Positions 21,019 through 45,201 of a DNA stretch of 64,000 nt are shown piece by piece (position 1 is the stretch's first letter; the number at the start of each line of letters is the position of its first letter). The DNA lies in the NCBI GenBank assembly GCA_963767005.1, contig CAVYCN010000003.1, positions 128,001-192,000 on the forward strand. Direction: 5' to 3'. The translations under genes and the position numbers were made by a program. The notes below the pieces were generated by a model. It had not been told where the DNA came from and searched no databases. It saw only the letters and a list, made by a program, of their open reading frames with translations. The stretch is from an uncultured Actinomycetes bacterium (GTDB lineage Bacteria > Actinomycetota > Thermoleophilia > UBA2241).

Positions 21019-21023
21019 CGCCG

Positions 21024-21806: not shown

Positions 21807-21858
21807 GGCTTACGCACCTCCGCAGGTCGACGTTTGCCCAAACGACGGGACGGCCTTT

Positions 21859-21904
21859 CGTGCGGGGGCGGGGCGGGCCTTGCGGCCCGCCCCGCCCCCG
21901 CACG
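21859..21904. terminator. 21-bp perfect GC hairpin between fixX and fixA
   Basis: CGTGCGGGGGCGGGGCGGGCC-TTGC-GGCCCGCCCCGCCCCCGCACG. Confidence 0.6.
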
Positions 21905-21906
21905 CT

Positions 21907-22194
21907 CTAGCTCATGCGATACTGCACCCCGAAGCCACCCCTCGGGTAGGTCCACGACAGCGCCTGCGGCTCGCAGCAGATCAGGCAGGTGCCGCACTCG
22001 AGGCAGCCCTCCCAGTTGACGGTCATGTCGCCCTGATCGCTGCGCTCGTACAGATCGGCCGGGCACACCTGCAGGCAGGCGCGACGCACGCAGACCGTGC
22101 GGCACTTCTCGACGTCGATCACGATGTGCGGTTCCTGGTCGAGCTTGAAGACGTCGAGGCCGAGCTTGGCGTCGACCTTGCCGGGTTCGCTCAT
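21907..22194 (-). CDS. fixX: Ferredoxin-like protein FixX
   Basis: CPADLY, EGCLECGTCLICC, WTYPRGGFGV. Confidence 0.93.
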   Translation of the reverse strand: MSEPGKVDAKLGLDVFKLDQEPHIVIDVEKCRTVCVRRACLQVCPADLYERSDQGDMTVNWEGCLECGTCLICCEPQALSWTYPRGGFGVQYRMS

Positions 22195-22206
22195 GACGGC
22201 ATCACC

Positions 22207-23496
22207 TCACACCTTGCGCAGCGACCACAGGTCTTTGAGCGTCGCCAGTTTGAGGAACTCGCGGCGGGCCCCGCGCAGGCCGGTGCTCACCAGCCGCTCG
22301 CCGCCCTCGTCGCCGATCGCGAAGACGTCCTCGAGCAGACGCGCCACGGCGCCGGGGTACTCACTGAACAGTCGGCGGTTCTCGATCGCCTGCGGCACCG
22401 CGCGACCGGCCTCCATCGCGCGCATGACGAAGGTCTCGCGCAGGTAGCGGTCGTAGCAGGCGAGCGAGCTCCCCGAGAAGGAGCCAGCCGCACGCGCCGC
22501 CAGGGCCGCCTGCGCCGCCGCCCAGCCGCTCGCCACGGCGAGGTCCATGCCGCGCACGGTGACGAGGGCGTTCAGGGCAAAACCGGCCGTCTCGCCGGCC
22601 AGCAGGTAGCCGTCGCCCCAGGGCCGCGGCAGATGGTCGTAGCCACCCTCGAACACCGCGTGCGCCGAGTACTCGGCAAGCTCGCCGCCGCGCAGGAGCG
22701 GCTTGACCTGGGCCGCCTCCTTGAAGGCGTCGAGCAGCTGCCACGACTCGAGGCCGTCGGTGCGCTCGCGCAGCTGCGCCATGCTCACCACGACGCCGAG
22801 GGCGATCGACTCGCAGTTGGTGTACAGAAAACCGCCGCCGGTCATGCCGCGCGTGACCTCGCCCATGAAGAGCTGGGCCGCGCCCTCGCCCTCAGCCAAA
22901 TTCCAGCGGTCCTCGATCACGCCGGCCGGCAGCTCGATGATCTCCTTGAAGCCGACGGCGTGGTCGGCGGCGCGGGGCTGCTCGCGCAGCCCCGCGCCGC
23001 CGGACAGCAGGCCGAGCACACCCTCGGCCACGATCGTGACGTCGGCGCCGACCTCGTCGTCGCCGGCCCGGACGCCGATCACGCGGTCGCCGTCGCGCAG
23101 CAGCTCGTCGGCCTTCATGTCGGTGACGACCATCGCGCCGGCGGCCGTGACCTTGTCGGCCAGCCACTGGTCGAACCGCGCGCGCTGCACCGTGTACGAC
23201 AGCGGCGTCGGCGTGAGGAACTTCTCGGAGGCGAGCTCGATGGTCGTCGCCGCGCCGTCGGCCAGCAGCGTCACGAGCTCACGCGCGACGGGCCGCTCGT
23301 AGGGCGCGTCGTCCCAAAGCTCGGGGTAGAGGCGGCGCAGAGGCCGCACGTAGAGCCGGCCGCCGGTGACGTTCTTGGCGCCGGCGTAGTTGCCGCGCTC
23401 GAGCACCATCACCTCGACGCCCTGCGTGGCAAGCCCGTAGGCGGCGGCCAGGCCGGCCGGACCGCCGCCGACCACGATGCACTCGACCTTCTCCAT
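22207..23496 (-). CDS. fixC: FixC-like FAD-dependent ETF:quinone oxidoreductase
   Basis: VVGGGPAG, ERGNYAGAKNVTGG, GGGFLYTN, EYSAH, RGMDLA. Confidence 0.93.
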   Translation of the reverse strand: MEKVECIVVGGGPAGLAAAYGLATQGVEVMVLERGNYAGAKNVTGGRLYVRPLRRLYPELWDDAPYERPVARELVTLLADGAATTIELASEKFLTPTPLSYTVQRARFDQWLADKVTAAGAMVVTDMKADELLRDGDRVIGVRAGDDEVGADVTIVAEGVLGLLSGGAGLREQPRAADHAVGFKEIIELPAGVIEDRWNLAEGEGAAQLFMGEVTRGMTGGGFLYTNCESIALGVVVSMAQLRERTDGLESWQLLDAFKEAAQVKPLLRGGELAEYSAHAVFEGGYDHLPRPWGDGYLLAGETAGFALNALVTVRGMDLAVASGWAAAQAALAARAAGSFSGSSLACYDRYLRETFVMRAMEAGRAVPQAIENRRLFSEYPGAVARLLEDVFAIGDEGGERLVSTGLRGARREFLKLATLKDLWSLRKV

Positions 23497-23603
23497 GTCA
23501 GCCCTCCCTCAGGCGAAGCGGGCTACCGCGCCGGGGCGCCGGCGGGCGGGGCGCGCCGCACACGCGCCCGCCCGCCGTTCCGGCCGGCGACCGGACTGGC
23601 CGC

Positions 23604-23707
23604 GCCTCGCGGCGCGCCTAGTCCCGCGATCGACTTCGTCGTCGCGGCTCAGGCTAGCGTGACTTCGTCGCGCGCTCAATGCGCGCGACTCCGCGGCGCG
23701 CCTAGTC
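23604..23707 (-). repeat. Dispersed copy of the ACTAGGCGCG hairpin repeat family, overlapping the acyl-CoA dehydrogenase TAG
   Basis: Minus strand reads GGACTAGGCGCGCCGCG...GCGCGCGACGAAGTCACGCTAGCCTGAGCC...GACGAAGTCGATCGCGGGACTAGGCGCGCCGCG; matches unit and spacer at 17990-18047; 17-bp direct repeat at both ends. Confidence 0.8.
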
Positions 23708-24934
23708 CTTGAACGGGTTGTGCGTCTCGCCCCACTCGTCGCGGGCGATGATGCCGCGCATGATCATGAGGCCGCCCTCGGCGCCGACCTCGTAGCTCAT
23801 GACGCCGCGGAGCAGCATCTCGAGGGGGGTCTCCTTCGTGTAGCCGAAGGCGCCGTGGTACATCATGCCGTGCCGCGCGATGTCGTGGCAGAGGGCCGGC
23901 GACAGGCACTTGCAGGTGCTGATGATCTTGTTGATCTCGCGCCGGTCGAACGTGCCCGGATTGGCGTGCTCCTGGCCGATCATCCAGGCGCCGCGCAGCA
24001 GGTTCAGCTTGAGCATGTCGAGCTGCATCCAGTCGTCGGCCATCTCGAACGAGATGCCCTCCCACTTGCCGAGCGGCTTGCCGAAAGTGCTGCGCTGCGC
24101 GGTGTACTCGCCGCTGATCTCGAGCCCCCGCTCGGCGCCGCCCAGGCAGGCGGCCGCCACGAGCACGCGGGCGGCGTTGAAGCCGTCCATGTTCACGTAG
24201 AAGCCCTTGCCCTCTTCGCCGAGGACGTACTTGCGGGGCAGCTCGACGTCCTTGTAGATCCAGCCGCCCGTCGACAGGCCCATGCGGCCCATGTCCTTGT
24301 AGGTGGTGTAGGTGATGCCGGGCAGGTGGGCGGGCACCCAGATGAAGGTCATGCCCTTGTGGCCCTGGTTCGGGTCGGTCTTGACCAGGGTGCAGTGGCC
24401 GCTCGGCGGACCCCACTTCGCGCACTCCTTGGGGCCGGAGACGTAGGCCTTCTCGCCGTTCATGACGAAGGCCTGCTTCTCTTCGTTCCAGGGGGCGATC
24501 GTCTTGATGGCGGACAGGTCGGAGCCGCCGCCCGGCTCGGTCGTGTTGATGCCGGCGAAGGCCTTGCCGGCGGCCACGGCCGGCAGGACCTCCTGCTTGA
24601 GCTCCTCGGTGCCGTAGCGGTTGATCATGTACGACCAGCCGATGGTGAGCAGCGTGTAGACCGGGGTGCTCATCGACAGGTCGGCGCGGGCGATCTCGTG
24701 CACCGTGATCATCGCGTAGATCAGGCGCTCGTCGTCGGGCAGCGGCATGCCGCCGTACTCCTCGGGAATCGTCACACCGAAGATGCCGAGCTCGGCCATG
24801 CCGGCCGTGATGTCGTCGGGGATGCCGTCCTCGGCCTCGTCGATCGCGCGGGCGCGCGGCTCGAGGTTCTTGGCCAGCCACTCGCGGATGGCCTGGCGGT
24901 AGAGGTTCTGCTCGGTCGTGTACCTGAAGTCCAT
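23702..24934 (-). CDS. Acyl-CoA dehydrogenase
   Basis: TEPGGGSDL, MNGEKAYVS, LGEEGKGF, RSTFGKPL, HGAFGY; SD GAGGAG before the ATG. Confidence 0.93.
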   Translation of the reverse strand: MDFRYTTEQNLYRQAIREWLAKNLEPRARAIDEAEDGIPDDITAGMAELGIFGVTIPEEYGGMPLPDDERLIYAMITVHEIARADLSMSTPVYTLLTIGWSYMINRYGTEELKQEVLPAVAAGKAFAGINTTEPGGGSDLSAIKTIAPWNEEKQAFVMNGEKAYVSGPKECAKWGPPSGHCTLVKTDPNQGHKGMTFIWVPAHLPGITYTTYKDMGRMGLSTGGWIYKDVELPRKYVLGEEGKGFYVNMDGFNAARVLVAAACLGGAERGLEISGEYTAQRSTFGKPLGKWEGISFEMADDWMQLDMLKLNLLRGAWMIGQEHANPGTFDRREINKIISTCKCLSPALCHDIARHGMMYHGAFGYTKETPLEMLLRGVMSYEVGAEGGLMIMRGIIARDEWGETHNPFKD

Positions 24935-25178
24935 CGGCTCCTCCTCGTGCGACCGCCGGCCGGCCGCGTCGTCGCTTGTCCCCTCGCGTACCGGCGTCTC
25001 CCTCAAGAACGAGAAACGCCCCCAGGGGTGCGCCTGTGGCGCGCTCGCTGGGGGCTCATGGCCGTGGCGACCGCGGCCGAAGGACCGCCGTCGAGCCATG
25101 CGTGCAGCTCGCGCCAATCATATAGGGGCCGCTCCGGCCGCGACAACCGGCCAGGCCGTCCAAGCCTGCGTCCGACGC

Positions 25179-25520
25179 TTATGCGTCGCGGCCCTTGGCG
25201 CGAAACGGCGCCGACAGGTCGACCGCCTCGAACACCTGGTGCAGGGCGAACAGCAGCGCGGCCTGCGAGTGGCCCAGGTAGAACTCGCGCACCGTGGCCT
25301 CGATCTCGCGGCGCTCGCAGACCACGGAGCGGCCGATCAGCAGGCGCGCGAAGAAGTCGCGGGCGAGGTCCATGAGCAGGGTGCTCGAGCAGGCGGTGAC
25401 GACGCCCTGCTCGTCGACCTCGACCACGATGCCGACGCGACGGTGGAGGTTCTGGTGCGACACGTCCTGCGGCAGGCGGGCGTAGCCCGAGAAGAGGTAG
25501 CTCTTCACGTCGTTCGTCAC
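25179..25520 (-). CDS. DUF3870-like small protein
   Basis: FSGYARLP, CSSTL..LARDFF, Y.G.SQ.A pattern resembles DUF3870. Confidence 0.65.
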   Translation of the reverse strand: MTNDVKSYLFSGYARLPQDVSHQNLHRRVGIVVEVDEQGVVTACSSTLLMDLARDFFARLLIGRSVVCERREIEATVREFYLGHSQAALLFALHQVFEAVDLSAPFRAKGRDA

Positions 25521-25825
25521 CTCCGGCGACGGCCTCGTTTCGGTCGCGACGCCGACAGTCTACCGCGTCGCGTCACCCATCGGGCCAGTACTGCGCGCGC
25601 GGCTTGGCAGGGCCGTCCGCTGATGCGGCCTTGCGCCGCCGGGGCGAGGCGGTAGGATGACGGCGCTGCATCCGCGACCTGCGACCGTCCGACAGCCGGT
25701 CGCGCCGGCCGTGGGCCCCCAGCAGGTGCGTACGGCCGCCTGGGGGCTTTTCGCGTTCGGAGGCCGTTCCCGCGCCTTCACAAGGGCAAGCTCAAGCGGC
25801 AGGCGACACGACAAGGAGGGCGGTC

Positions 25826-26818
25826 GTGACCCCATCGTCCGGCGCCGGCGGCGCTCCGACCGGGGCCAGGTTCATGAGCCTCGGCGAGGCCGTCGCGCGC
25901 TTCGTGCCCGACGGCGCGGTGGTCGCCCTCGGCGGTTTTACCATCAACCGCAACCCGATGGCCTTCGTCTACGAGATGGCGCGCCGCGGCGTGCGCGACC
26001 TGCACCTCGTGGCGCACTCCAACGGCCAGGCGCTCGACACGCTCGTCGGCTGCGGCTGCGTGAGCCGCATCGAGGTCGCCTACGGCGGCAACGGCCGCTT
26101 CGCCCCCACCTGCGTGCGCTTCCGCCGCGCGGTCGAGCGCGGCGAAGTCGCGGTCGAGGACTACTCGAACTACCAGATGGCCCTGCGTTTTCTGGCCGGC
26201 GCTCTCAACGTGCCGTTCATCCCGACCAAGTCGGGGCTGCACACCGACCTCGTCGCGCGCCAGGGCTTCGGCGCCGACTACCGGGCGGCCCAGGGCCTGC
26301 CCGACAAGAAGCTCGTCGTCATGCCCGACCCCTTCGACGGCGACGGCGACGACGTCGTCCTGCTGCCGGCGCTCAAGCCCGACCTCGCCGTCGTCCACGC
26401 CCAGACCGTGGCCGACGACGGCACGGTGCGCATCAAGGGGCTCACCTTCGCCGATCTCGAGCAGGCCAAGGCGGCCCGCGCCGTGGTCGTCACCTGCGAG
26501 GAGATCGTGCCGGCCGCCGACCTGCGGCTCGACCCCGACCAGAACGCCCTGCCGCCGTTCCTGGTCGATGCCGTCGTGCTCGCGCCCCACGGCGCCCACC
26601 CGACCGCCTGCCGCTACTTCTACGACTACGACCCGACGTTCCTGAACGACTACCGCCGGGCCGCCCACGACGACGACGCCTGGGCGGCCTTCGTCGACGA
26701 GTGGATCCGCGGCCCCGCCGGCCACGAGGCCTACGTAGCCAAGCTGGGCGCCGAGCGCCTGGCGAAGATCAAGGCCGACCCGATGCGCGGCTACGCCATC
26801 GGGCTGGACAGGCGGTGA
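25826..26818 (+). CDS. Family I CoA-transferase subunit A (glutaconate CoA-transferase GctA-like)
   Basis: GGFTINRNPMA, EDYSN, LPALKPD, HAQ..D..G, GAHPT.C..YDYD. Confidence 0.9.
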   Translation: MTPSSGAGGAPTGARFMSLGEAVARFVPDGAVVALGGFTINRNPMAFVYEMARRGVRDLHLVAHSNGQALDTLVGCGCVSRIEVAYGGNGRFAPTCVRFRRAVERGEVAVEDYSNYQMALRFLAGALNVPFIPTKSGLHTDLVARQGFGADYRAAQGLPDKKLVVMPDPFDGDGDDVVLLPALKPDLAVVHAQTVADDGTVRIKGLTFADLEQAKAARAVVVTCEEIVPAADLRLDPDQNALPPFLVDAVVLAPHGAHPTACRYFYDYDPTFLNDYRRAAHDDDAWAAFVDEWIRGPAGHEAYVAKLGAERLAKIKADPMRGYAIGLDRR

Positions 26819-26822
26819 GACG

Positions 26823-27620
26823 ATGAGCGCGAGCCACCCGAGCACGCAGGCAACGGGCATCCCGCCCTTCACCTCGCGCGAGATGATGGCGATCGCGGCC
26901 GGCCGTTTCGTGCGCGACGGCGACATCCTGTTCGCCGGCACCGGTGTGGCGCTGCTGGCCGCCGGCTGCGCCAAGCGCGTGCACGCGCCCGGCGCCGTGG
27001 TGTTCGTCGAGACCGGCGGCATCGACCCCACGCTCGACGAGATCCCCATGGCGGTCGCCGACCCGCGCGTCATGGACGGCACCTGCATCAACGCCGGCAT
27101 CATCGAAGCCTTCTCGTACATCGCCAACCCGCGGCTGCACACGATCGCCTTTTTGGGCGCCGCCCAGATCGACCGCTACGGCAACCTGAACTCGACCTGT
27201 ATCGGCGACTACGACCACCCCACGGTGCGCTTCTCGGGCAGCGGCGGCGCCTGCGACGCCGCCTCGCTGGCCTCGGCCTTCATCGTGTTCATGCAGCACG
27301 GCCGGCGCAAGTTCGTGGAGCGCCTCGACTACCGCACGAGCCCCGGCTGGCTCGAGGGCGGCGAGCGGCGCCACGAGGCCGGCTTCGCCCGCGGCGGTCC
27401 GCTCGCGGTGGTCACCGACCTCTGCGTGCTGCGCTTCGACGAGACGACCCACGAGATGTACCTGGCCGAGCGCTACCCCGGCGTGACCGACGAGCAGGTC
27501 CAGGACAACACGGGCTTCCCCCTCGACGTGTCGCGCGCGGTCGACGCCGTGCCGCCGAGCGCCGAGGAGCTGCGCATATTGCGCGACGAGGTCGACCCGC
27601 AGCGCCTGATCCTGGGGTAG
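26823..27620 (+). CDS. Family I CoA-transferase subunit B (GctB-like)
   Basis: FAGTG, ETGG, FLGAAQIDRYGNLNST, GSGGACD, V..NTGFPL. Confidence 0.9.
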   Translation: MSASHPSTQATGIPPFTSREMMAIAAGRFVRDGDILFAGTGVALLAAGCAKRVHAPGAVVFVETGGIDPTLDEIPMAVADPRVMDGTCINAGIIEAFSYIANPRLHTIAFLGAAQIDRYGNLNSTCIGDYDHPTVRFSGSGGACDAASLASAFIVFMQHGRRKFVERLDYRTSPGWLEGGERRHEAGFARGGPLAVVTDLCVLRFDETTHEMYLAERYPGVTDEQVQDNTGFPLDVSRAVDAVPPSAEELRILRDEVDPQRLILG

Positions 27621-28129: not shown

Positions 28130-28861
28130 TCAGACTGGCCCCGGCGGCCCGCCCGGGTCGACGCCGGCCCGCCGAAAGGCGCGGTCGCGCAGCTCGCGCA
28201 CCACGCCCTCCCAGTAGTCGAACACGGCGTCGACGTCGAAATCGGGGTCGGCCGCGATCTGCTCGGCGAGGCCGTCGCAGACTGCGACGGTGATCGCGCA
28301 CAGCGGGTCGAGCTCGCGCTTGAGACGAGCGTCGACGTCGGGCGCGAGCGCCCACTCGTCGAGATCGCGGTACCAGCGGTACAGCTCAGCCATGCGCGTG
28401 CGCAGCTCGTCGTCGCGGATGAGCTGCGGGAACAGGTCCCAGAAACGCCGGTAGCCCACCTGCGCCTTGGTGCTGTGGCGATGCATGGCGAGCAGCATCT
28501 CGACGCGGTCGGCGCCGGCCACCTCGGGCTGGCGCAGCGCCCGCAGCAGCGCCATGTTGTCGTCGTGCACGACCGAGTCGGCAAGCGCCTCGACCAGGCC
28601 GGCCTTGTTGCCGAAGTGGTAGCGGATGCTCGCCTTGTTCTCGTGCGCCTCGGCGGCGATCGCCTCGAAGGTGAGGCCGCCGAAGCCGCGCTCGTCGAGC
28701 AGGCGCTTGCTGGCTTCGAGGATGCGCTGCGCGGTGGGCGACAGGTCGGCGGCCGGGTCGGCGCCGGCCGCCGGCCGGCCGCCCACCTCCCAGCGCCGCT
28801 TCGGCGGCGTCGCTCCGCTGTCGTCGGGCCGCCCAGCGGCGGCCTTGCGCTCCCGCGCCAT
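28130..28861 (-). CDS. TetR family regulator divergent from the methylamine methyltransferase operon
   Basis: RILEASKRLL..GFGGLTFEAIAAEAHENKASIRYHFGNKAGL HTH; GGAG SD before ATG 28861. Confidence 0.88.
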   Translation of the reverse strand: MARERKAAAGRPDDSGATPPKRRWEVGGRPAAGADPAADLSPTAQRILEASKRLLDERGFGGLTFEAIAAEAHENKASIRYHFGNKAGLVEALADSVVHDDNMALLRALRQPEVAGADRVEMLLAMHRHSTKAQVGYRRFWDLFPQLIRDDELRTRMAELYRWYRDLDEWALAPDVDARLKRELDPLCAITVAVCDGLAEQIAADPDFDVDAVFDYWEGVVRELRDRAFRRAGVDPGGPPGPV

Positions 28862-29081: not shown

Positions 29082-30521
29082 ATGGAGCAGAGCATCATCA
29101 CGCGACTGGCCGACGGATCGCTCGTGCGCATGACGCCGAGCGAGATCCACGCCGACCTCGAAGAGGGCAGCGCCGCCGGCGCCAAGAAGGCCAAGGCACC
29201 CCCGCTCGAACCCGACGAGCTCGACCGCCTGCTCGAGATCTTCGCCTCGAACGCCCACTTCACGGCGGTCGACATCGGCGACGAGCTCATCCTGTCGTGC
29301 GACGGCTCGGGCAACATGGACTCCGGCACGCGCATCGACGAGCTCTACAGCTACCAGAGCCACCGCGGCGCCGACATCGTCGAGCTGTACCACATCGACT
29401 ACTCGTACAAGGCCGTCAAGACGGTCATGTCGTTCGAGCAGCAGGTGATGAAGAACGCCCAGCTCAACCTGGTGGCGCCGCTGCAGTACGGGGCGATGCC
29501 CGACCTGGGCCGCTACTCGCAGCCCGACGGGCCCATTCCCAACTGGTCGGAGCTGCTGCCCCTGGGGCGCATCGACGAAGCGCGCGCCGCCCAGGAGGAG
29601 GCAGTCGAGCACGCCGTACGCGACATGGTCTTCGTCGCCGAGGGCATGATCGAGGCCGGCGCCGACGGCATGGACTTCGACACCTCGGGCGCCGCCGGCG
29701 ACGCCGACTTCCTCGCCACGCTGCTCGCCGTCGAGGAGATCAGGCGGCGCCATCCCGATATCGGCATCGAGCTCGGCATGGCGAGCGAGTTCGTGCTCGG
29801 CATGCACGGCGAGCTCGAGTTCCACGGCAAGCGCCTCGCCGGCCTGTGGCCGCGCGACCAGGTCGCCGTGGCGGCCGAGGCGGGCGCGACCATGTTCGGG
29901 CCGGCGGTCAACGTCAACACGACACGCTCCGTGGCCTGGAACGTGGCGCGCGCCCTGGCGATCGTCAAGCCCTGCGTGCAGGAGTCGCCCATCCCGGTGC
30001 ACATGAACGCCGGCATGGGCGTGGGCGGCGTGCCGATGACCGCATACCCGCCGACCGACGCCGTGTCGCGCATGGCGCGCGCGATGCGCGAGGTCGGCCG
30101 CCTGGACGGCTTATAGGTGGGTGTGGGTGACCCGCTCGGCATGGCGTGCAGCCATGCGCTCGCCGCGGGCATGGGCGGAATGCGGACCGCCGGAGACCTG
30201 GTGGCCCGCATGCAGATGACCCGCGGCATGCGACTCGAGCAGGCCAAGACCTACGTCGCCGAACGGCTCGGCGTGAGCGTCCTCGACCTCTGCGACCCGC
30301 TCGTCATGCACGACGTGCGGCGCGAGCTCGGCCTGGGGCTGATCCCCGTGCAGGAGCTCACCTACCCGAGCGAGCCCGGCTCGATCGAGGCCAAGTTCCA
30401 CATCGCCGAGGTGCTCGACGTGCCCATCAACTGCGTGCGGCAGTTCAAGAATCGCGTCGCCCCGCGCTCGCGCGCGCGGCAGGTCGGCGCGACGGCGACC
30501 AGACCGGAGGTGCCCGCGTGA
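29082..30521 (+). CDS. mtbB: Dimethylamine:corrinoid methyltransferase with in-frame amber (pyrrolysine) codon at 30114-30116
   Basis: ORFs 29082-30116 and 30117-30521 are contiguous in one frame: RLDGL-TAG-VGVGDPLGM..SH...GMGGMRTAGDLVARMQ, matching methanogen MtbB DGI-O-IGVGDPLGM...GMRAAGDLVARMQ; HIDYSYK, YGAMP, GMGVGGVPM also present. Confidence 0.93.
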
Positions 30522-31987
30522 AACGTAACCTCTTCGCCGGCCGGCCGCGCAGCGGCGGCCTGCGCCTGAACGTCTTCACCGAGGCCGAGGTCGACGACAT
30601 CCACTCGGCGACGCTCGAGGTGCTCGAACGCACCGGCGTGTTCGTCGAGGCCGACGAGGCGCTCGACATCTTCTCGGACGGCGGCTGCGACGTGGACCGC
30701 GAGACGCACGTGGTGCGCATCCCGCCGCACGCCGTCGAGGACGCGATCCGCTCGGCGCCCGCGAAGATCGTGCTCTGCGGCCGCGAGCCGAAGAACGATG
30801 TCGTGCTCGAGCCGGGCCGCGTCGCCTTCACCAACTTCAGCGAGGGCATCCGCGTAGTCGATCCGTGGTCGGGCGAGATCCGCGACTCGACCAAGGCCGA
30901 CATCGGCGACATCGCCCGCCTGAACGACTACCTGTCCGACATCGACACGCACGAGATCGCGGTCGGCGCCAGAGACGTGCCGCCCGAGACCTGCGCGGTG
31001 CACAACGCCGAGATGCAGTACCTGAACACGACCAAGCCGATCGGCATCGGACCGCTGTCGCGCACCGAGACGATCGCCATCTTCCGCATGGGCGCCGAGA
31101 TCGTCGGCGGCGCCGATGAGCTGCGCCGGCGCCCGATCGTCTACAACGGCGTCTGCCCGGTGAGTCCGCTCAAGCTGCCGCACGAGGCCACCGAGGTGAT
31201 CATCGAGACGGCCCGCTGGGGTATTCCCAACAACATCCTCTCGATGGCGATGGCCGGCGGCTCGTCGCCGGTCACCCTGGCCGGCACCCTGGTCACCCAC
31301 AACGCCGAGGTGCTGTCGGGCATCACGCTGGCGCAGCTCTCTGAGCGGGGCGCGCCCTGCATCTACGGCAGCTCGACGACGGCGATGGACCTCAAGCTGG
31401 CGGCGGCCTGCGTGGGCTCGCCCGAGCTCGCCATGATCTCGGCCGCCGTGGCCCAGATGGCCAGGCGCTACCTGCTGCCGAGCTTCGTGGCCGGCTTGTA
31501 GGCTGACTCGAAGCTCGGTGACGCCCAGGTCGGGCACGAGAAAACCCTCACCGGCATCATGGCAGCGTTGGCAGGGGCCAACCTGATCTACGGTTCGGGG
31601 ATGATCGAGTCGGGCGTCACCTTCGATTGCGGGCAGTTCGTCATGGACAACGAGTTCGCCCGCATGATCAAGCACTGCGTCGGCGGCATCACGGTGAGCG
31701 ACGACACGCTCGCCGTCGACGACATCGCGGCGGTGGGGTCGTTCGGCGACTTCCTGTCGCTCGACGCCACCCTGCGCCACATGCGCGAGCTCTCCCAGCC
31801 GGAGCTCCTCGACCGCCGCGTGCGCGAGGACTGGGAGGAGCGCGGCGCTACCGACCTGCACGCCCGTTGCCTGGCCAAGGCGCGCGAAATCCTCACAAAC
31901 TTCACGCCGGCGCAGCTCGACGACGACGTCAAGGGGCGCATTCGCGATATCGTGGTCGAGACCGATCGTCTGGTCGGTGTCGCCTGA
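30518..31987 (+). CDS. mttB: Trimethylamine:corrinoid methyltransferase with in-frame amber (pyrrolysine) codon at 31499-31501
   Basis: GTGA overlap with mtbB stop; SMAMAGGSSPVTLAGTLVTHNAEVLSG, YGSSTT, VGSPEL, LPSFVAGL-TAG-ADSK...GHEKT...LAGANLIYGSGM aligns with MttB [13 protein letters not shown]...GHEKT. Confidence 0.93.
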
Positions 31988-31999
31988 AAGGAGAGGCCC

Positions 32000-32629
32000 A
32001 TGAAGGAACAGCTGACGCAAGCCCTCATCGCCGGCAACGGCGAGACCGTGAACGCCCTGACCAGCGCGCTGCTCGCGAGCGGCGCGTCGGCCCGGGAGAT
32101 CTTGGACGAGGCGCTGCTGCCCGGCATGGAAGTGGTCGGCGAGCGCATGCGCAAGGGCGAGTGCTTCATCCCCGAGGTGCTGCTCTCGGCGCGCACCATG
32201 CAGGGCGCGCTCGACCTGCTCAAGCCGCACCTCGGCGAGGGTGAGAGCGCCGGCCTGGGCACCATCGTGATCGGCACGGTCGAAGGCGACCTGCACGACA
32301 TCGGCAAGAACCTGGTCGCCATGCTGCTGCAGGGCGCCGGCTTCACCGTCGTCAACCTCGGCACCGGCGTGACGACGACGGCCTTCGTCGCCGCCGTCAA
32401 GGAGCACAGCCCGGTGATCGTCGGCATGAGCGCGCTGCTCACCACCACGCTGCCGCACATGGCAGAGACGATCGCGGCGCTCAAGGACGCGGGGCTGCGC
32501 GACTCGGTCAAGATCATGATCGGCGGCGCGCCGGTCACCCAGGCCTTCGCCGACGAGCTCGGCGCCGACGGCTACGGCGCGAACGCCGGCATGGCCGTCG
32601 AGCGCGCCAAGGCGCTCGCCACAGGCTAG
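32000..32629 (+). CDS. Methylamine/methyltransferase cognate corrinoid protein (MttC/MtbC-like)
   Basis: FIPEVL cap domain; B12 motif GDLHDIGKNLV, SALLTTT, IMIGGAPV; SD AAGGAG. Confidence 0.95.
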   Translation: MKEQLTQALIAGNGETVNALTSALLASGASAREILDEALLPGMEVVGERMRKGECFIPEVLLSARTMQGALDLLKPHLGEGESAGLGTIVIGTVEGDLHDIGKNLVAMLLQGAGFTVVNLGTGVTTTAFVAAVKEHSPVIVGMSALLTTTLPHMAETIAALKDAGLRDSVKIMIGGAPVTQAFADELGADGYGANAGMAVERAKALATG

Positions 32630-32869
32630 AGGCGGCCCGCGGCGCGGCCGCGGCGAACAGAGCCGTCGGGAGACGGCGACGGCAGACGGGACCGGCGCAC
32701 GCGGCGCCGGCGAACTGACTCGGCCACGACGGCGGCCGGCCCCGGGGGCTCGGCCGGCACAGGGGGTGTGAGATGGCCAGCAGCGTCACGCGAGCGCCAT
32801 TGCACGGCGCCATGGCGGAGGAGCGCGTCAAGCTGCGCAAGGTGTTGCGAGCGACCTCGAGGTAGTGAA

Positions 32870-34333
32870 ATGACGATGTTCGAAACGACGGCGCGTCCGC
32901 GCTTGAGCATGCTCGACGCGGCGGCCATCGAGTACGTCCACGAGCAGTCGCTGCGCCTGCTTGAGGAGGTCGGCGTGCGCGTGCCGCTGGCGCGCGCCCA
33001 GGCGCTGCTTTCCGACGCGGGCGCGCGGATCGACGCCGAGACCGGCGTCGCGCGTCTGCCGCGCGACTTGGTCGAGGGCGCGCTGGCGCGCGCCCCGCGT
33101 ACCGTCCTGCTCGCCGCACGCGACCCCGGCAAGGACGCGCTGCTCGACCACACGCGCGCCTTCGCGACCCACGACGGCATGGGCGCCATGTGCCTCGACC
33201 ATCGCACCGGCGAGCGCCGGCCGTCGACGGCGCGCGACCTGCGCGAGGCCATGACGGTGGCCGACGCGCTCGACGAGATCGGCGTGCTCTGGTACACGGC
33301 CTACCCGTGCGACGAGGAGCCGGCCCTGCAGTCGCTGCGCGGCCTGCAGGCGATGCTGGCCGGCAGCGCCAAGCACGTGCAGGGCGAGGTCACCGACCCG
33401 GCCGACGTGCCGTACGTCATGGAGATCCTCGCCGCCGCGAGCCCCGACGGAGTCTGGCACCGGGAGCGGCCCACCTTCTCGATCGTCTACTGCCCCGTGA
33501 GCCCGCTGCAGCACGATGCCGAGAGCCTCGCGGCCGCCATCCTGCTCGCCGAGCAGGGCGTGCCGATCACCGTGTACAGCCTCGCCCTCGCCGGCGCGAC
33601 CGCGCCGATCACCCTGGCCGGCACCGCCGTGCAGACCAACGCCGAGGAGCTCGCCGCCTTCGCGGTCCTGCAGCTCGCCGTACCGGGCTGCCCGCTGATC
33701 TACGTGGCGAACGCCGGCGTCATGGACATGCGCACCTCGACCTACACCTCGGCCGGGCCCGAGGAGGTCCTGCTCAACACGGCGCTCATCGAGATGGGCC
33801 GCCACTATGGCGTGCCGGTGCTGTCCTGCGGCCTGTCGACCGACGCCAAGGAGCTCTGCGTACAGGTCGGCTCCGACGGCGCGCCGATGGCCTACTGCAC
33901 GCTGCTGGCCGGCGCCGACCTGCTCACCGGCGCCGGCATGCTCGACTCGGCCCAGCTCCTCTATCTGCCCAAGCTGGTGCTCGATGCCGAGCTCGTGCGC
34001 CAGGGCCGGCGCCTGCTCGCCGGCGTCACCTTCGACGACGAGCACGTCATGCTCGACGTGAGCGCACGGGTCGGGCCGGGCGGCCACTTCCTCGCTGCCC
34101 GCGAGACGCGCACGTTCCTGCGCAGCGGCGAGCTGCAGCAGCCGCGCCTGTTCGTGCGGGGCTCGTACGACGGCTGGGTGGCCGAGGGCAAGTCCGAAGC
34201 CCAGCGCGCGGTCGCGGCGGTCGACGAGATCCTCGCCACCCACCGGCCGCTGCCGCTGCCCGACGGCGCCGCGCAGCGCATCGAGGACGTGATCGCCGCA
34301 GCCGCGGCCGAGCGCGGCGTGCCGGTGACCTGA
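32870..34333 (+). CDS. Non-pyrrolysine MttB-superfamily methyltransferase (quaternary-amine demethylase type)
   Basis: CPVSPL, GATAPITLAG, NAE, GLSTDAK (Ser at the Pyl position), GAGMLD, VGPGGHFL; no internal stop. Confidence 0.9.
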   Translation: MTMFETTARPRLSMLDAAAIEYVHEQSLRLLEEVGVRVPLARAQALLSDAGARIDAETGVARLPRDLVEGALARAPRTVLLAARDPGKDALLDHTRAFATHDGMGAMCLDHRTGERRPSTARDLREAMTVADALDEIGVLWYTAYPCDEEPALQSLRGLQAMLAGSAKHVQGEVTDPADVPYVMEILAAASPDGVWHRERPTFSIVYCPVSPLQHDAESLAAAILLAEQGVPITVYSLALAGATAPITLAGTAVQTNAEELAAFAVLQLAVPGCPLIYVANAGVMDMRTSTYTSAGPEEVLLNTALIEMGRHYGVPVLSCGLSTDAKELCVQVGSDGAPMAYCTLLAGADLLTGAGMLDSAQLLYLPKLVLDAELVRQGRRLLAGVTFDDEHVMLDVSARVGPGGHFLAARETRTFLRSGELQQPRLFVRGSYDGWVAEGKSEAQRAVAAVDEILATHRPLPLPDGAAQRIEDVIAAAAAERGVPVT

Positions 34334-34987: not shown

Positions 34988-36652
34988 CTACCGTCCGGGC
35001 AGCTTCACGTCGATCGTCAGTGGCACCTCGACCGCCGAGGCGGTCATCTGGACAAGGACGTCGATGCTCCACCGGCCTTCCACGGAGAGCTCGAGTCCGG
35101 AGCCTTGCCAGACGCCTCGCGACCCGGTGGCGAGGCTGAGAGTCGATGCCTGCACGGTCGTCTGCCCAGGCAGCGAGAAGTCGAGCGTGACCGCTCGCAC
35201 GCCGGTCACAGGCCGCCCGCTGGCGTAATCGCTGAGCGTTGCCGTGAACGCGTTCGAGCCGACCCGACCGGGACTCACCACGAGACGTACCCGCACCGTG
35301 GTCGCGTAGTCGCTGCCGTTCAGCACAAGGTGGCTCTGGGCCTCGGCCCGGGCCGAGGCCGCGGCGATGGTCGCCGGCGCAAGGCCGCTGAGCACGCCGG
35401 TCACCGCCAGGATACCGACTCCGAGCAGGAGCTCGCCGCGCACCGAGCTCCGAAAGAGCGGCGCGGCGCGATCGTCGGCCAGGGCGGGCACCAGCCGGAA
35501 GTGATTGCGCGCCCCGAGCACGACCAGCGCGCAGAAGAGGCCGAGCTTGACCAGAAGCAGCGCACCGAAGCTCGTGTGCAACAGGTTGGCGGGAGCCCCG
35601 ACCTCGGCCACACCCCGCGCGATGCCGGTCGCCAGCACGACACCGAGGCCGATCGTGGCGATCGCCGAGAAGCGCCGCCCGGCCCACGCTCGTTCGTCAC
35701 GCCGCGCCTGTCGCAGCCCGAGCAGCAGCCAGGCCAGCCCGCCCACCCAGGCCCCGACAGCCACGACGTGCAGCCACTGCACGGTCAGGTTGAGGAATCG
35801 GTAGGGAGAGACGCCGCCGGCATGGCTTCCCCAGACGACCGAGAACATCGCGAGGGCGGCGGCCGCGCCGAGCACGGTGAAGGTAACGCGTCCCGGCAGG
35901 AGGCTCATCCATTGCACCGCCAGGCCGCAGAACAGGACCGCGGTCACACACTGGCCCAGCAGGGTGTAGCCCTCCGGGGTCTCGATGAGCGCGAGCAGGG
36001 ACGGAGCCCGCACGATGGCCTGTTCGGTCAGCATGACCGTGAAGATACCGACCGAGGCAAGCAGCCAGGCCGACCAGAACAGGCCGCGACCGCCGACCGG
36101 CAGCCTTCCTCGCCAGACCCAGAGACAAGTCGTGGCCCCACCGAGGAACAGGACCAGCCCGCTCCACAGCAGCCAGCGGCCGGCCGCCTGGGCGCTCGTG
36201 AGCCAGCGAGACGTCGAGACGTACTTGCCGAAGGGCGCCACCCCACCGACATTGGCTACTCCCACCCCAAAGGCGTAAGCCCCTCCCGCGAGATGGCCGT
36301 CCAGAGCCGAGACGGTCTGCCAGTCCACGGTGTAGACGCCGCGGGGCAGCGGGCGGCTCACGGAGACCTCGAGCTGCTGTGAGTTCCCCGGCACCGCACG
36401 AGAGGGCAGGACGCCGGGCGCCGGCCGACCCCGCGTATCGACGACCTGGACGTGTGAGAGGGAGGGGTCGACCGGCTCGCTGAACGTGAGCAGCAGGCGT
36501 TGAGGCGACTGCGTCACGGTGCCGTTCACCGCAGGGCTGGCACGGGTCAGGAGGGCGTGCGCCTCAGCCGTGGCCGGCAGGAGCGCAAGAGCGCCGGTCA
36601 GCAGCGCGAGGCAGAGTCCGGCCCGGGTGGTCGTGCGCATCGAGGCGCGCAA
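34988..36652 (-). CDS. Copper resistance/uptake CopC-CopD-(YtkA-like) fusion (YcnJ-like)
   Basis: Signal + AHALL..SP, LTFSEP, YTVDW..S.LDGH (CopC); SHA, LH...AWVGGL, RFS, LL.K (CopD); PGRVGSN/G.W C-domain. Confidence 0.88.
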   Translation of the reverse strand: MRASMRTTTRAGLCLALLTGALALLPATAEAHALLTRASPAVNGTVTQSPQRLLLTFSEPVDPSLSHVQVVDTRGRPAPGVLPSRAVPGNSQQLEVSVSRPLPRGVYTVDWQTVSALDGHLAGGAYAFGVGVANVGGVAPFGKYVSTSRWLTSAQAAGRWLLWSGLVLFLGGATTCLWVWRGRLPVGGRGLFWSAWLLASVGIFTVMLTEQAIVRAPSLLALIETPEGYTLLGQCVTAVLFCGLAVQWMSLLPGRVTFTVLGAAAALAMFSVVWGSHAGGVSPYRFLNLTVQWLHVVAVGAWVGGLAWLLLGLRQARRDERAWAGRRFSAIATIGLGVVLATGIARGVAEVGAPANLLHTSFGALLLVKLGLFCALVVLGARNHFRLVPALADDRAAPLFRSSVRGELLLGVGILAVTGVLSGLAPATIAAASARAEAQSHLVLNGSDYATTVRVRLVVSPGRVGSNAFTATLSDYASGRPVTGVRAVTLDFSLPGQTTVQASTLSLATGSRGVWQGSGLELSVEGRWSIDVLVQMTASAVEVPLTIDVKLPGR

Positions 36653-36663
36653 CGCCGCCCCCC

Positions 36664-37308
36664 TCAGGCGCGCTTGTGAAGCAACGCGACGAGGGCCACC
36701 GCCAGACCGGCGACGCCGACCGCCAGGCCGACGATGCCGAAGAGCTGGGCCCGAGAGGCGTCAGAAGCGGTCGCCAGGCGCGGCAACGAGACGTTCACGC
36801 GCTGCGAGAGCTCGGTCATCGTGGGCGTCTGTACGGGGAACTCGCTCGCCGTGGGGTCCTGTACCGTGTTGAAGGTGGTGGGACCGCTCGTGAACCTCTG
36901 GTCGATATGCTGCGTGCCGATCGTGCCGATGAAGTGGAACGTGTAGTTGCCGGGGGCGGTCGGAAACAGCCAGGCACGATAGTCGCCGGGTGTACCCAGG
37001 CCGGTGTCCGGGTCAAAAGTGGGCTCAAGGGCGAAGATTGTCATCTGGCTGCCATACATCACCATGACCCTGAGACCGTTGCCCAAGTTGACGACGGGCT
37101 TGCCGGTGCTGCGATCGCTCAGGATCAGCTGGACGCTGTTCTCCTGGCCGACGTAGGCGGGTTCTGTGCCCCAGCCCACGACGAAGCGGTAGGCGCCCAC
37201 GTCGCGGACCTCGTGTGCATGGGCGGGCGCGGCGGTCAGGAGGCCGAGCGGCAAGAGTAGACCGAGCGCAACGACGAGACCAGGCGCGAACCTTCGTGTC
37301 ATGACCAT
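36664..37308 (-). CDS. Secreted, C-terminally anchored protein with N-terminal His (putative copper chaperone partner)
   Basis: Signal peptide ending AHA-HE, VGWG.EPAY, C-terminal TM; directly upstream of copCD. Confidence 0.65.
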   Translation of the reverse strand: MVMTRRFAPGLVVALGLLLPLGLLTAAPAHAHEVRDVGAYRFVVGWGTEPAYVGQENSVQLILSDRSTGKPVVNLGNGLRVMVMYGSQMTIFALEPTFDPDTGLGTPGDYRAWLFPTAPGNYTFHFIGTIGTQHIDQRFTSGPTTFNTVQDPTASEFPVQTPTMTELSQRVNVSLPRLATASDASRAQLFGIVGLAVGVAGLAVALVALLHKRA

Positions 37309-37598
37309 GGCTCCCTTGTCCGGGCTGGGCTGATCTCTGCGTCTCATGACGCGTGCCATCGGGCCTCAGCGGGTGCAGTCGTCGCAGGCTCCACTTGCGT
37401 ACGACTGCGCACCTGTATCCCCCGCACATTGCGTTCTTGCACGCCGGCCGTTGAGGCGCGCAAGAGCCTAAGTACGATGCGGCGCGAAGACCGGTGACGC
37501 CATGGCCGCGTCGCTCGGTGTCGCCGACCTGAGCGAAGCCCCCGCAAGCGGCCTCGGCTTGCGCCGACACCAGCCGCGTACAGGGGCTTCGTAAGAGT

Positions 37599-37674
<76 letters not shown>

Positions 37675-38245: not shown

Positions 38246-39364
<1,119 letters not shown>

Positions 39365-39459
39365 GCGTTCTCCTCACTTGACTCGGCGAATCGTCATGTT
39401 CCGACAAGGTTCGCAAACCGTCACCGACACCGCCACCCCGCTCGTCCGCCTCTGGCCGG

Positions 39460-39503
39460 CGTCGCTGCCGCTCAGGCGAGCGTGACCTCGTCACGCGCCT
39501 AGT
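39460..39503 (-). repeat. Dispersed copy of the ACTAGGCGCG hairpin repeat family containing the dnaG TAG
   Basis: Minus strand ACTAGGCGCGTGACGAGGTCACGCTCGCCTGAGCGGCAGCGACG vs ACTAGGCGCGCGACGTAGTCACGCCTGCCTGAGCGTCAGCGACG at 18048. Confidence 0.85.
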
Positions 39504-41337
39504 CCTCGACGGGCAGGGCGCGCAGCTCGTCGCGGATCTGGCGCCGGGTGCTCTCGAGCTCGACCAACCTGGCCTCGTTGTCAGAGTCGTCACGCGCCAC
39601 CGCTGTCTTGAGCTTCACAATGAGACGTCCGACGTGCTGTTCCTGGACACGAAGGAACAGCTCTTTCAGCACGAGTGCGGTGAACGACTCGGCGGCCGCC
39701 CTCACCACAATCGCCGCCACGGTACCCTCATCGGTGGCGTCCCCGTCTCTCACCAACCCGTGCCCCTGGTCGTTTTTCCCTGCTCCTTGCGGGCTTAACC
39801 GCCGCAGCGCAGCGCGATAGGCACTCCTCGACCCCTCGGTCGACAAGAAGCTCTCATCGATCGCTGCGAGGTAGTCGCGTCCTTGATCGGGCAACGCCAG
39901 GCAGGCTGCCAGGAAGCTCACTTCGAGCTCGTGCGTGCCCATCAGGACGCGCTCCTCGGCCGTGCGGCGGTCGGCCGGGCGCCGGAGCGCCTCGCCGCCC
40001 GCCGCGCTGCCCGCGAGAGCCGCGCGCCGCGCGCCGGCGGAGGCTTCGTCGCTGAGCAGGAACCTGATGTTGTCTTCGCTCAGCCGCAGCCTGTCGGCGA
40101 CGTACCGGACCTCTTCGTCACGCTCGAGGGGGCTGGCCGCCTGCGCGAGGATGGGGCGCAGCACGGCGAAGGCCCGCATACGACCGTCCACGGTCTGAAG
40201 GTCGTGAGAAGCAAGCACGGTGTGAATCTGGAACTGTAGCAGAGTCTGCGCCGCGGCGGCAAGCATGCGAAAAGCGTCGCCGTCGTTGCCCGCCAGCACG
40301 TAATCGGCCGGATCGAGGCCGTCCGGCACGCGCACGACGCGCATGGTCGCGCCGTGACGGCGGGCGAGCTCGAGGGCGCGGTTCATGGCCGACAGGCCGG
40401 CCGCGTCGGCGTCGAAGCACAGAAAGAGGTTGCGGGTGTGGCGGGTGAGGCGTTTCAGCTGCTCCTCGGTGAAGGCGGTGCCCATGGCGGCCACCACGTT
40501 GGTCACGCCGGCCTGCACCAGCGCGATGACGTCGGTGTACCCTTCGACCACGAACAGGCGGTCGAGCTTGGCGGCGCTCGTGCGGGCCTTGTCGAGGCCG
40601 AACAGGGCCTCGCTCTTGTGGTAGAGCAGGGTCTCGGGCGAGTTCAGGTATTTCGGTTTGTCGTCGCCCAGCGTGCGCGCGCCGAAGCCCAGCACCCGAC
40701 CGCGCTCGTCGGCGAGGGGGAACATGAGCCGGCCGCGGAAGCGGTCGTAGACGCCGCCCCGCTGACCGGGCACGACGAGGCCGGCGTCGGTGAGCTCGTG
40801 TTCGCTGAAGCCCTTCTTGCCGGCCGCGTCGCGCAGCCGCGACCAGGCCGGCAGCGAGTACCCCAGGCGGAACTGCCTGCAGACCTCCTCGCCGAGGCCA
40901 CGCTCGGCGAGGTAGGCGCGGGCGCCGTGCGCCGCCGGCGCTTCCCACAACACCCGCTCGTAGTAGTCGCGCGTGAGCTCGAGAAGCTGGCGCAGGCGCT
41001 CGCGCCGGCGCCGGTCGGCGTCGGCGCGGCTGCTCGACGCGTCGTACTCGAGCTGCACGCCGAAGCGGTCGGCGAGCGCTTCGACCGCTCCGGCGAAGTC
41101 GAGGTTCTCCTTCTTCTCGATGAACGACAGCAGGTCGCCGCCCTCGCCGCAGCCGAAGCAGTAGTACAGCTTCTCGGCGGGGTCGACCGAGAACGACGGG
41201 GTCTTCTCTTCGTGGAACGGGCAGCGCCCCATGTAGTTGGCGCCGGCCTTCTTGAGCTGGGTGTACTGGCCGACGACCTCGAGCATGTCGGCAGCCGCCA
41301 CGACCCGCTCGATGCTCGCTTTGGCGATGCGCGCCAG
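39499..41337 (-). CDS. dnaG: DNA primase (probable CTG start)
   Basis: CPFHEEKTPSF..YYCFGC zinc finger, DRFRGRLMFP, KYLNSPET, VEGYTD, CFDAD; homology extends to CTG at 41337 preceded by AAGGCGG. Confidence 0.95.
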   Translation of the reverse strand: MARIAKASIERVVAAADMLEVVGQYTQLKKAGANYMGRCPFHEEKTPSFSVDPAEKLYYCFGCGEGGDLLSFIEKKENLDFAGAVEALADRFGVQLEYDASSSRADADRRRRERLRQLLELTRDYYERVLWEAPAAHGARAYLAERGLGEEVCRQFRLGYSLPAWSRLRDAAGKKGFSEHELTDAGLVVPGQRGGVYDRFRGRLMFPLADERGRVLGFGARTLGDDKPKYLNSPETLLYHKSEALFGLDKARTSAAKLDRLFVVEGYTDVIALVQAGVTNVVAAMGTAFTEEQLKRLTRHTRNLFLCFDADAAGLSAMNRALELARRHGATMRVVRVPDGLDPADYVLAGNDGDAFRMLAAAAQTLLQFQIHTVLASHDLQTVDGRMRAFAVLRPILAQAASPLERDEEVRYVADRLRLSEDNIRFLLSDEASAGARRAALAGSAAGGEALRRPADRRTAEERVLMGTHELEVSFLAACLALPDQGRDYLAAIDESFLSTEGSRSAYRAALRRLSPQGAGKNDQGHGLVRDGDATDEGTVAAIVVRAAAESFTALVLKELFLRVQEQHVGRLIVKLKTAVARDDSDNEARLVELESTRRQIRDELRALPVED

Positions 41338-42380: not shown

Positions 42381-45098
<2,718 letters not shown>

Positions 45099-45201
45099 CG
45101 ATTCCTCCTGAAGCACCACGGTCGCGGGGCTAGTCTCTTGTGCTCCCCGTCGTCATCCATCAACCCTTGACTTCGTTGCAGCACGCCGAGCCACGGGCCA
45201 G

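Follow-up and report, generated by a model that had tools for sequence, protein, structure and literature searches.

The in-frame TAG of an actinobacterial trimethylamine:corrinoid methyltransferase gene (mttB) is almost certainly a pyrrolysine (Pyl) codon. Three Pyl gene families of the same genome, mttB, mtbB and mtmB, converge on one type of predicted hairpin downstream of the amber; this convergence, its contrast with 895 terminator TAGs and a rule for the codon directly ahead of the amber (position -1) are what this analysis shows.

The mttB gene occupies positions 30518..31987 (+) of the window, by which we mean the whole 64,000-nucleotide stretch of DNA that was analysed. It is preceded by a Shine-Dalgarno-like GGAGGT (30506..30511, +), and its GTG start overlaps the TGA stop of mtbB. 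Translation with TAG read as pyrrolysine (O) gives 489 amino acids with O328 encoded at 31499..31501 (+), no other stop and a TGA end at 31987, which bears out the sequence-only reading of a single 489-codon gene open to that point. The same reading had placed the amber at the conserved Pyl site of the MttB family and had proposed a profile alignment to Pyl-MttB as a check: the whole protein scores 687 bits against TIGR02369 (curated cut-off 525) with the TAG in the Pyl column, and in a full-length alignment with Methanosarcina barkeri MttB (7xcl_A; E 6e-117) O328 pairs with the X that denotes Pyl334. Tyr364, Met249 and Gly372 of the M. barkeri enzyme are all retained, as Tyr358, Met243 and Gly366.

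The Pyl site was compared across 35 related loci, the 35th of which stops short of it; it is TAG in 34 of 34 and never TAA, TGA or a sense codon. Within the genome itself the MttB family has 41 matches, seven with an amber, and when the 35 near-full-length ones were aligned, all seven TAGs fell in the same column, which holds a sense codon in the other 28. Such constancy within and between genomes upholds the earlier claim that the paired ambers of mttB and its neighbour are not chance decay. That neighbour, mtbB (29082..30521, +; 479 codons, Pyl-type dimethylamine methyltransferase family), does carry an amber of its own at the catalytic position (O345; TAG at 30114-30116, +) and scores 438.6 against TIGR02368 (cut-off 369.1). 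In 23 colinear orthologues of mttB (11 of the 34 loci, being truncated, frameshifted or gapped, were excluded) dN/dS was 0.12-0.42 downstream of the TAG and 0.14-0.54 upstream, indicating that purifying selection acts on both sides of it.

Standard gene callers break mttB at the TAG into a 327-aa product and a separately started 142-aa product, and in-frame ATGs do lie past the TAG. It is nonetheless extremely improbable that the TAG is a true stop, created by a pseudogene or a sequencing error or separating two such proteins, given that 34 of 34 loci have TAG and none TAA or TGA, that a full Pyl machinery is present, that the 19 codons from the TAG to the next ATG are conserved at the protein level, and that the codon specifies the catalytic residue within a TIM barrel (residues 82-395 in the accessible text of PMC9842639). 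Among the database matches listed, 113 of 120 homologues terminate exactly at the Pyl position, and Pyl-MttB is routinely mis-annotated as a 327-aa fragment. At the level of silent sites, a synonymous-variability window test of mttB codons 329-348 gave no signal (rank 167 of 464), and a dip in synonymous variability was seen at codons 341-360. The glycine codons at +6, +11, +31 and +33 after the TAG are the rare GGT, GGG or GGA in 68-98% of 92 mttB genes, a bias for which the core hairpin described below does not account. One clade nested among the Pyl-MttB proteins (L043, L044, L045, L046, L050 and L073; P0046, P0074, P0085, P0091 and P0097) carries Leu or Val in place of the amber; its frames are intact, Tyr364 is mostly gone (Ala or Phe) and some members adjoin a Pyl mttB, and we infer that it is a secondary pyrrolysine loss.

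Two further genes follow mttB: one for a corrinoid (B12-binding) protein, the likely methyl acceptor, whose final TAG is taken as an ordinary stop (32000..32629, +), and one for a non-Pyl methyltransferase of the MttB superfamily with Ser at the Pyl column (32798..34333, +; start uncertain within 32798-32903). The corrinoid protein scores 191.8 against TIGR02370, below the cut-off of 215.3, and a second corrinoid gene is located in the pyl cluster. A divergent TetR-family regulator (28130..28861, -) is matched in 15 of the 35 related loci; in many relatives non-Pyl mttB, Pyl mttB, Pyl mtbB and a corrinoid gene lie side by side (16, 26 and 20 of 35 loci). At 20071-27620, genes for an acyl-CoA dehydrogenase, FixC/FixX, ETF alpha/beta, DUF3870 and a two-subunit CoA transferase adjoin the methyltransferase operon; this set is reminiscent of carnitine/butyrobetaine pathways, and its CoA transferases are matched in just 6 of the 35 related loci. 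Elsewhere the window holds a CopC/CopD copper protein (34988-37359), a tRNA-Asn (37599-37674), rpoD-dnaG (38246-41301), a pyruvate phosphate dikinase-like gene (42381-45119) and the RF1 gene at about 52015-53118 (-). These surroundings are ordinary chromosome, in which no mobile-element signs were seen.

From what is known of the family, Pyl328 and Tyr358 would activate a tertiary methylamine, most likely trimethylamine (TMA), and its methyl group would pass to the corrinoid protein encoded by the adjacent gene or by the one in the pyl cluster. The corrinoid protein would be re-activated by RACo, the methyl group would reach tetrahydrofolate through an MtqA-like enzyme, and MtbB would then take on the secondary amine. 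Both a RACo protein and an MtqA-like protein are encoded in the genome, in which AcsB was not found and a motif search for fhs/folD gave nothing credible; EF-Tu and Fhs were not found there by HMM list or motif either, and the assembly may be incomplete.

TMA is likely to be the main substrate of this MttB, judging from its residues and profile score. At the position of Gly110-Thr111 in M. barkeri the protein has Ser108-Glu109. According to the accessible text of PMC9842639, Gly110 is 100% conserved in 66 sequences and acts through its main-chain carbonyl, so that Ser108 lowers certainty on the substrate and not on family membership. Ser108 occurs in 113 of 120 homologues among the matches listed, and many other amber genes have Ser or Asp. 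Alternatively, the paralogue might demethylate a different tertiary N-methylamine, such as what the neighbouring non-Pyl MttB produces, in an operon that removes three methyls successively from a single quaternary amine, which would not conflict with the decoding model set out below. The co-occurrence in this genome of eight Pyl-MtbB with seven Pyl-MttB paralogues of 50-79% identity, the variation of the Gly110-Thr111 column among these paralogues (SE, SA, DE, GE or GI) and the recurrent adjacency of the four genes lend this alternative some weight, but we consider it doubtful, since the protein passes the TMA equivalog TIGR02369, retains the counterparts of Tyr364, Met249 and Gly372, and shares SE with 120 of 120 Desulfobacterales-like homologues, which makes SE a common bacterial variant. 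We know of no Pyl-MttB that acts on another substrate.

The host genome (3.44 Mb, about 71% GC) has its closest related loci in MAGs of Thermoleophilia, Actinomycetes or Actinomycetota. Its Pyl system is complete and is encoded on the contig that carries the window, some 45-55 kb past it: PylSc (297.8 against a curated cut-off of 178), PylSn (122 against 51), PylB (428 against 348), PylC (279 against 248) and PylD (195 against 150) were all recovered, as was a tRNA-Pyl (pylT) with a CUA anticodon. The genome contains 16 Pyl genes, namely seven for MttB, eight for MtbB (every MtbB having an amber) and one of its four for MtmB; the three amber-less MtmB-family genes are at C19:119913, C2:314112 and C3:104519. 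PylSc exceeds its cut-off in 60 of 301 genomes of the class, which by a manual count of rows are this genome, 50 of 55 in its family and 9 of 55 in a second family, with none elsewhere. Within the family, Pyl-type MttB is found in 57 of 61 genomes, MtbB in 39 of 41 and Pyl-type MtmB in 6 of 61; in a sample of the phylum, Pyl-type MttB is found in 2 of 401.

Several features of the pyl neighbourhoods stand apart from the decoding question. In most genomes of the family a corrinoid gene and a radical SAM gene lie between pylSn and pylSc (here L001:5355-7064); the radical SAM gene, present in 13 of 21 pyl neighbourhoods, has a weak match to the tRNA-modification proteins MnmL/YtqA. Both pylSc (L001:3049-3912) and pylSn (L001:7093-7434) terminate in TAG, as do 11 of 18 and 8 of 15 called neighbourhood copies, respectively; feedback via read-through is possible. 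In the second family (L149-L154) a single island of about 30 kb, in which the hairpins and a TTA ahead of the amber are retained, brings together pyl genes, mtmB, mtbB, mttB, corrinoid genes, transporters and an MtbA-like gene. The genome also encodes a selenocysteine system, with SelB, tRNA-Sec (C19:163121 (-) and C7:106937 (-)) and at least two candidate Sec genes (C4:374451-376409 and C4:389248), one of them formate-dehydrogenase-like with a SECIS-like hairpin, and is thus predicted to use 22 amino acids. Selenocysteine in MttB was considered and rejected, the single TGA match (C10:37067) sitting upstream of the start codon, and no Rfam riboswitch match was found before pylB.

TAG also remains an ordinary stop codon in this genome. 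It terminates 910 of 2778 genes predicted with a purpose-made codon-model gene caller (about 33%), 15 of the 910 being Pyl genes, and it often directly abuts the ATG of the next gene. A genome-wide TAG-to-Pyl code is rejected on this count and by the presence of RF1. Nor is TAG use lower than in pylS-negative members of the family (33.7% of 516 against 24.3% of 111 and 28.3% of 99 genes, in samples), and the open frames that follow terminator TAGs are not shortened (median 67 codons, against 54 after TGA). A read-through scan for more Pyl proteins returned only adjacent genes and known families. With TAG common as a stop and RF1 present, two options are left to the cell: to live with the ambiguity or to mark its Pyl codons.

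The codon before the amber is one candidate mark. In mttB it is Leu TTG (31496..31498, +) and in mtbB TTA (30111-30113, +), although TTG and TTA together make up 2.0% of Leu codons genome-wide. Leucine precedes the TAG in 12 of the 16 Pyl genes of the genome, as TTG or TTA every time. Across intact, de-duplicated contexts (dropped if an extra stop fell within the 121-codon window, and ignoring three mis-framed mtbB rows), a leucine before the Pyl TAG is TTG or TTA in 134 of 134 cases (39 mttB, 89 mtbB, 6 mtmB), compared with 2 of 70 leucines before terminator TAGs, 0 of 16 in non-Pyl mttB and at most 12 of 74 in other Leu columns, the hairpin's own excepted. In mttB the -1 codon is not leucine in 53 of 92 genes, where it is mostly GCG. 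More generally, a C stands directly ahead of the TAG in 8 of 188 Pyl contexts against 418 of 895 terminator TAGs. Avoidance of CTAG was rejected as the cause, because it would bar CTC and not CTG and because so many terminator TAGs do have a preceding C. In general, the codon held in the P site can affect termination by RF1, and a UUR leucine codon there would weaken it.

The second candidate mark is a hairpin in the message. In mttB the predicted hairpin spans 31563..31585 (+), with a 6-bp core (31567-31582), an AGGG loop (31573-31576), one bulge and three further pairs; in mtbB it spans 30187..30204 (+), with a 7-bp stem and an AGAC loop (30194-30197), and forms the apex of a longer stem at about 30157-30232 (z -5.2). 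Codons +23 to +25 of mttB, TTG GCA GGN, yield the 6-bp stem with an AGGN loop, codons +26/+27 of mtbB, GGA GAY, yield the 7-bp stem with an AGAY loop, and the Pyl mtmB of the genome has a 6-bp stem with the loop AGGG. The loop A lies at +72, +78 and +114 from the TAG in mttB, mtbB and mtmB, respectively, so that an AGRN-tetraloop hairpin follows the TAG at 72, 78 or 114 nt in all 16 Pyl genes, whose three families are unrelated. Within +60..+120, a window picked after seeing the data because a scan to +110 had missed mtmB, such a hairpin follows 5 of 895 terminator TAGs, 18 of 1750 TGAs and 0 of 118 TAAs, and is found in 0 of 28 non-Pyl mttB; the background is 0.128 per kb per strand genome-wide. 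A genome scan for TAG plus hairpin gave 12 matches, every one a known Pyl gene.

Comparison of relatives, which are not independent sequences, suggests that the hairpin is very probably under selection and tied to the amber. The loop A is supplied by silent positions: Ala+24 of mttB is GCA in 92 of 92 genes (at most three in each of 14 other Ala columns), and all 90 mtbB genes have GGA for Gly+26, a codon that none of 11 other Gly columns shows more than 11 times. The hairpin forms in 78 of 92 mttB genes compared with 2 of 300 synonymous resamplings, 14 of the 92 Thermoleophilia mttB falling under 0.5, and in 90 of 90 mtbB genes compared with 69 of 300. RNAalifold recovers the same mttB and mtbB stems unaided. 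In sets of 25 (mttB) and 36 (mtbB) sequences at no more than 88% identity, none of 500 shuffles, which ignore kinship, reaches either alignment in percent paired or in covariation score, and slid controls are far lower. The mtbB pairs +75:+84 and +72:+87 occur as four or five pair types each; the mttB covariation depends on five cells in 25 sequences. The evidence for mtmB is weaker, with the loop A at +114 in 9 of 10 genes, the full 6-bp stem in 7 of 10 and no two-sided changes. Where six close homologues have CTC or GTC at the Pyl site, the hairpin is found in 0 of 6, and the loop A and Tyr364 are each lost in five; these homologues without a TAG all belong to a single clade within the Pyl genes and therefore count as one loss. 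The fixed loop base argues for recognition over stability, and the mttB hairpin region is by itself unremarkable in stability (z -0.94).

The element was also sought in metagenomes, where a pattern scan matched 121 stretches, of which 80 were examined. The hairpin is present in 59 of these 80 mttB and absent in 21, and in a tree of 61 metagenomic mttB it occurs in 44 rows of a 46-row clade and in 3 of the other 15. Among 52 lower-GC metagenomic mttB, 33 form the hairpin, compared with 39 of 1040 sequences resampled with their own codon usage. In the 33 with TTG the pair +66:+81 is A-U in 17, G-C in 13, G-U in one and A-C in none, and the switch between A-U and G-C, silent on both sides, recurs on several branches of the tree. 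The loop A is retained in metagenomic genes despite Ala-to-Ser/Thr changes. One lower-GC clade is 87% identical to the MttB of a Desulfobacterales MAG, which makes it likely that the element is not confined to Actinomycetota. The hairpin is missing from three sequences that are similar to the M. barkeri protein near the amber and that we infer to be archaeal; viral contigs and plasmids gave no pattern match.

In order to bring these observations together, we propose that the tRNA-Pyl/PylS system of the same contig likely decodes the mttB TAG as pyrrolysine, and that the rare TTG at -1 and the predicted AGGG-loop hairpin at +72 likely bias the ribosome to insertion over release. The UUR leucine codon in the P site would weaken RF1 termination, and a putative factor that reads the AGRN loop, for which PylSn or a host protein are guesses, would bind the hairpin and act at a distance. 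On the sequence comparisons, we judge it fairly probable that both marks aid Pyl insertion at this TAG, and give a slight preference to the view that the hairpin raises insertion directly. Extended to a general rule, the model would have bacteria that use UAG as a stop flag their Pyl codons by UUG or UUA, or at least a non-C, before the UAG and by an AGRN hairpin 70-115 nt downstream in synonymous codons, a solution that mttB, mtbB and mtmB would have reached independently, with a loop-reading factor favouring Pyl-tRNA over RF1; this we put forward tentatively, at somewhat less than an even chance. The distance of the hairpin from the codon, its three different offsets and its absence from some Pyl mttB all count against a role in decoding. 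As to the reader, SelB was rejected: no second SelB-like factor was found, the genome has one SelB-wing match, and such a match occurs in 197 of 301 genomes of the class irrespective of pylS. No candidate factor was seen in 21 pyl neighbourhoods, whose called proteins were judged by eye.

The main rival accepts the gene as a Pyl-MttB and gives the hairpin a protective role, in which, upon pausing or termination of the ribosome at UAG, it prevents Rho loading or nuclease attack on the exposed message and thereby spares the genes further down the operon. It accounts for the long and variable distance of 72-114 nt equally well, for the restriction of the hairpin to amber genes and its loss along with the TAG; moreover, the mttB and mtbB ambers both precede further genes of one run, and no dedicated factor was found. 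A roadblock would need no fixed loop base, however, yet the silent-site loop A is invariant in 182 of 182 mttB and mtbB genes and survives the Ala-to-Ser/Thr changes of the metagenomic genes. Message protection also leaves the TTG/TTA codon unexplained, and the stand-alone Pyl mttB genes of this genome retain the hairpin, so that we regard it as possible but unlikely.

Alternatively, UAG could be ambiguous, with Pyl supply in control as it is in Methanosarcina and Acetohalobium; the hairpin would then be a site for a regulator of methylamine genes or an inherited sequence, outside decoding. In the accessible portions of recent papers, no targeted mechanism of Pyl insertion is known in any organism (PMC12626013, 2025), an insertion element is not required (PMC13663744, 2026), and pyl expression in A. 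arabaticum is under global control (as summarised in PMC11467909); Pyl mttB genes without the hairpin, too, exist. Inheritance alone, in contrast, fails the column controls and the resampling, three unrelated families converge on one loop type, and the non-Pyl methyltransferases of the same operons lack the hairpin (0 of 28). Frequent blind read-through might also be expected to select for short frames after terminator TAGs, which was not seen. We therefore consider this explanation quite improbable, and the two-mark decoding model remains our preferred reading.

The gene by itself is nothing new in kind, as Pyl mttB and mtbB, both expressed, are already published for Actinobacteriota MAGs from Stordalen Mire (Ellenbogen et al., PMC10805028, accessible text). 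Those MAGs share the phylum and the two families with our locus, and a 'bog_752' record is among our closest loci, the genus Bog-752 being named there; the text accessible to us does not treat Pyl machinery, copy numbers, stop usage or mRNA signals. Two Actinobacteria with PylRS appear in the part of Guo et al. (PMC9630628) available to us. With M. barkeri MttB (PDB 7XCL/7XCM/7XCN; TIGR02369; PMC9842639 as far as accessible) the enzyme has in common the Pyl, Tyr364, Met249, Gly372, the motif around the amber and an adjacent corrinoid gene; it differs in Ser108-Glu109, a bacterial host, split PylSn/PylSc, seven paralogues, TAG as the stop of a third of genes, and a genome in which AcsB was not found.

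The hairpins overlap in part with known RNA models. Rfam RF02510 (PYLIS_3) matches mttB with 68.1 (gathering score 38) and RF02509 (PYLIS_2) matches mtbB with 60.7 (gathering score 36), both matches beginning at the TAG. In the PYLIS_2 consensus a hairpin on this AGAC loop of mtbB is already present, whereas the PYLIS_3 match is mostly one of sequence, and that model has a different structure, without the mttB hairpin found here. Theil Have et al. (PMC3639795, accessible text) report that mttB genes lack a common structure; a shared loop type, a -1 codon rule and a test against terminator TAGs were not found in that text. The mtmB hairpin, at +114, falls outside the 100-nt windows of this earlier work. 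Zhang and Gladyshev (PMC1976440, 2007), as far as accessible, argued that an insertion element is to be expected in bacterial Pyl genes and found no common structure. In our literature searches, largely of partial texts, neither a hairpin shared across Pyl families nor a -1 codon rule was found. Bacterial SECIS elements read by SelB are likewise small in-frame hairpins that follow a recoded stop and have a purine-rich loop; unlike the Pyl hairpins, 72-114 nt away and paired with no second SelB-like factor that we could find, the predicted fdhA SECIS of this genome lies about 12-30 nt after the UGA and has another loop. The genome likewise differs from the genome-wide TAG-to-Pyl code of Kivenson et al. 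(2025, as reported in the accessible part of PMC13695967), in that TAG still ends about a third of its predicted genes.

The signals around the amber thus matter more than the gene. With 71% GC, 16 Pyl genes and about 900 terminator TAGs, this genome makes selection at silent sites easily visible, and the signal, comprising one loop base, one stem and one codon, is a short and mutable target. If the proposal is true, the two-part mark would be the bacterial PYLIS that was sought and not found in 2007, and it would offer site-selective amber suppression for genetic code expansion. For the organisms themselves, a soil and peat family of Thermoleophilia that has pylS nearly throughout (50 of 55 sampled) and many methylamine methyltransferases likely competes with methanogens for methylamines.
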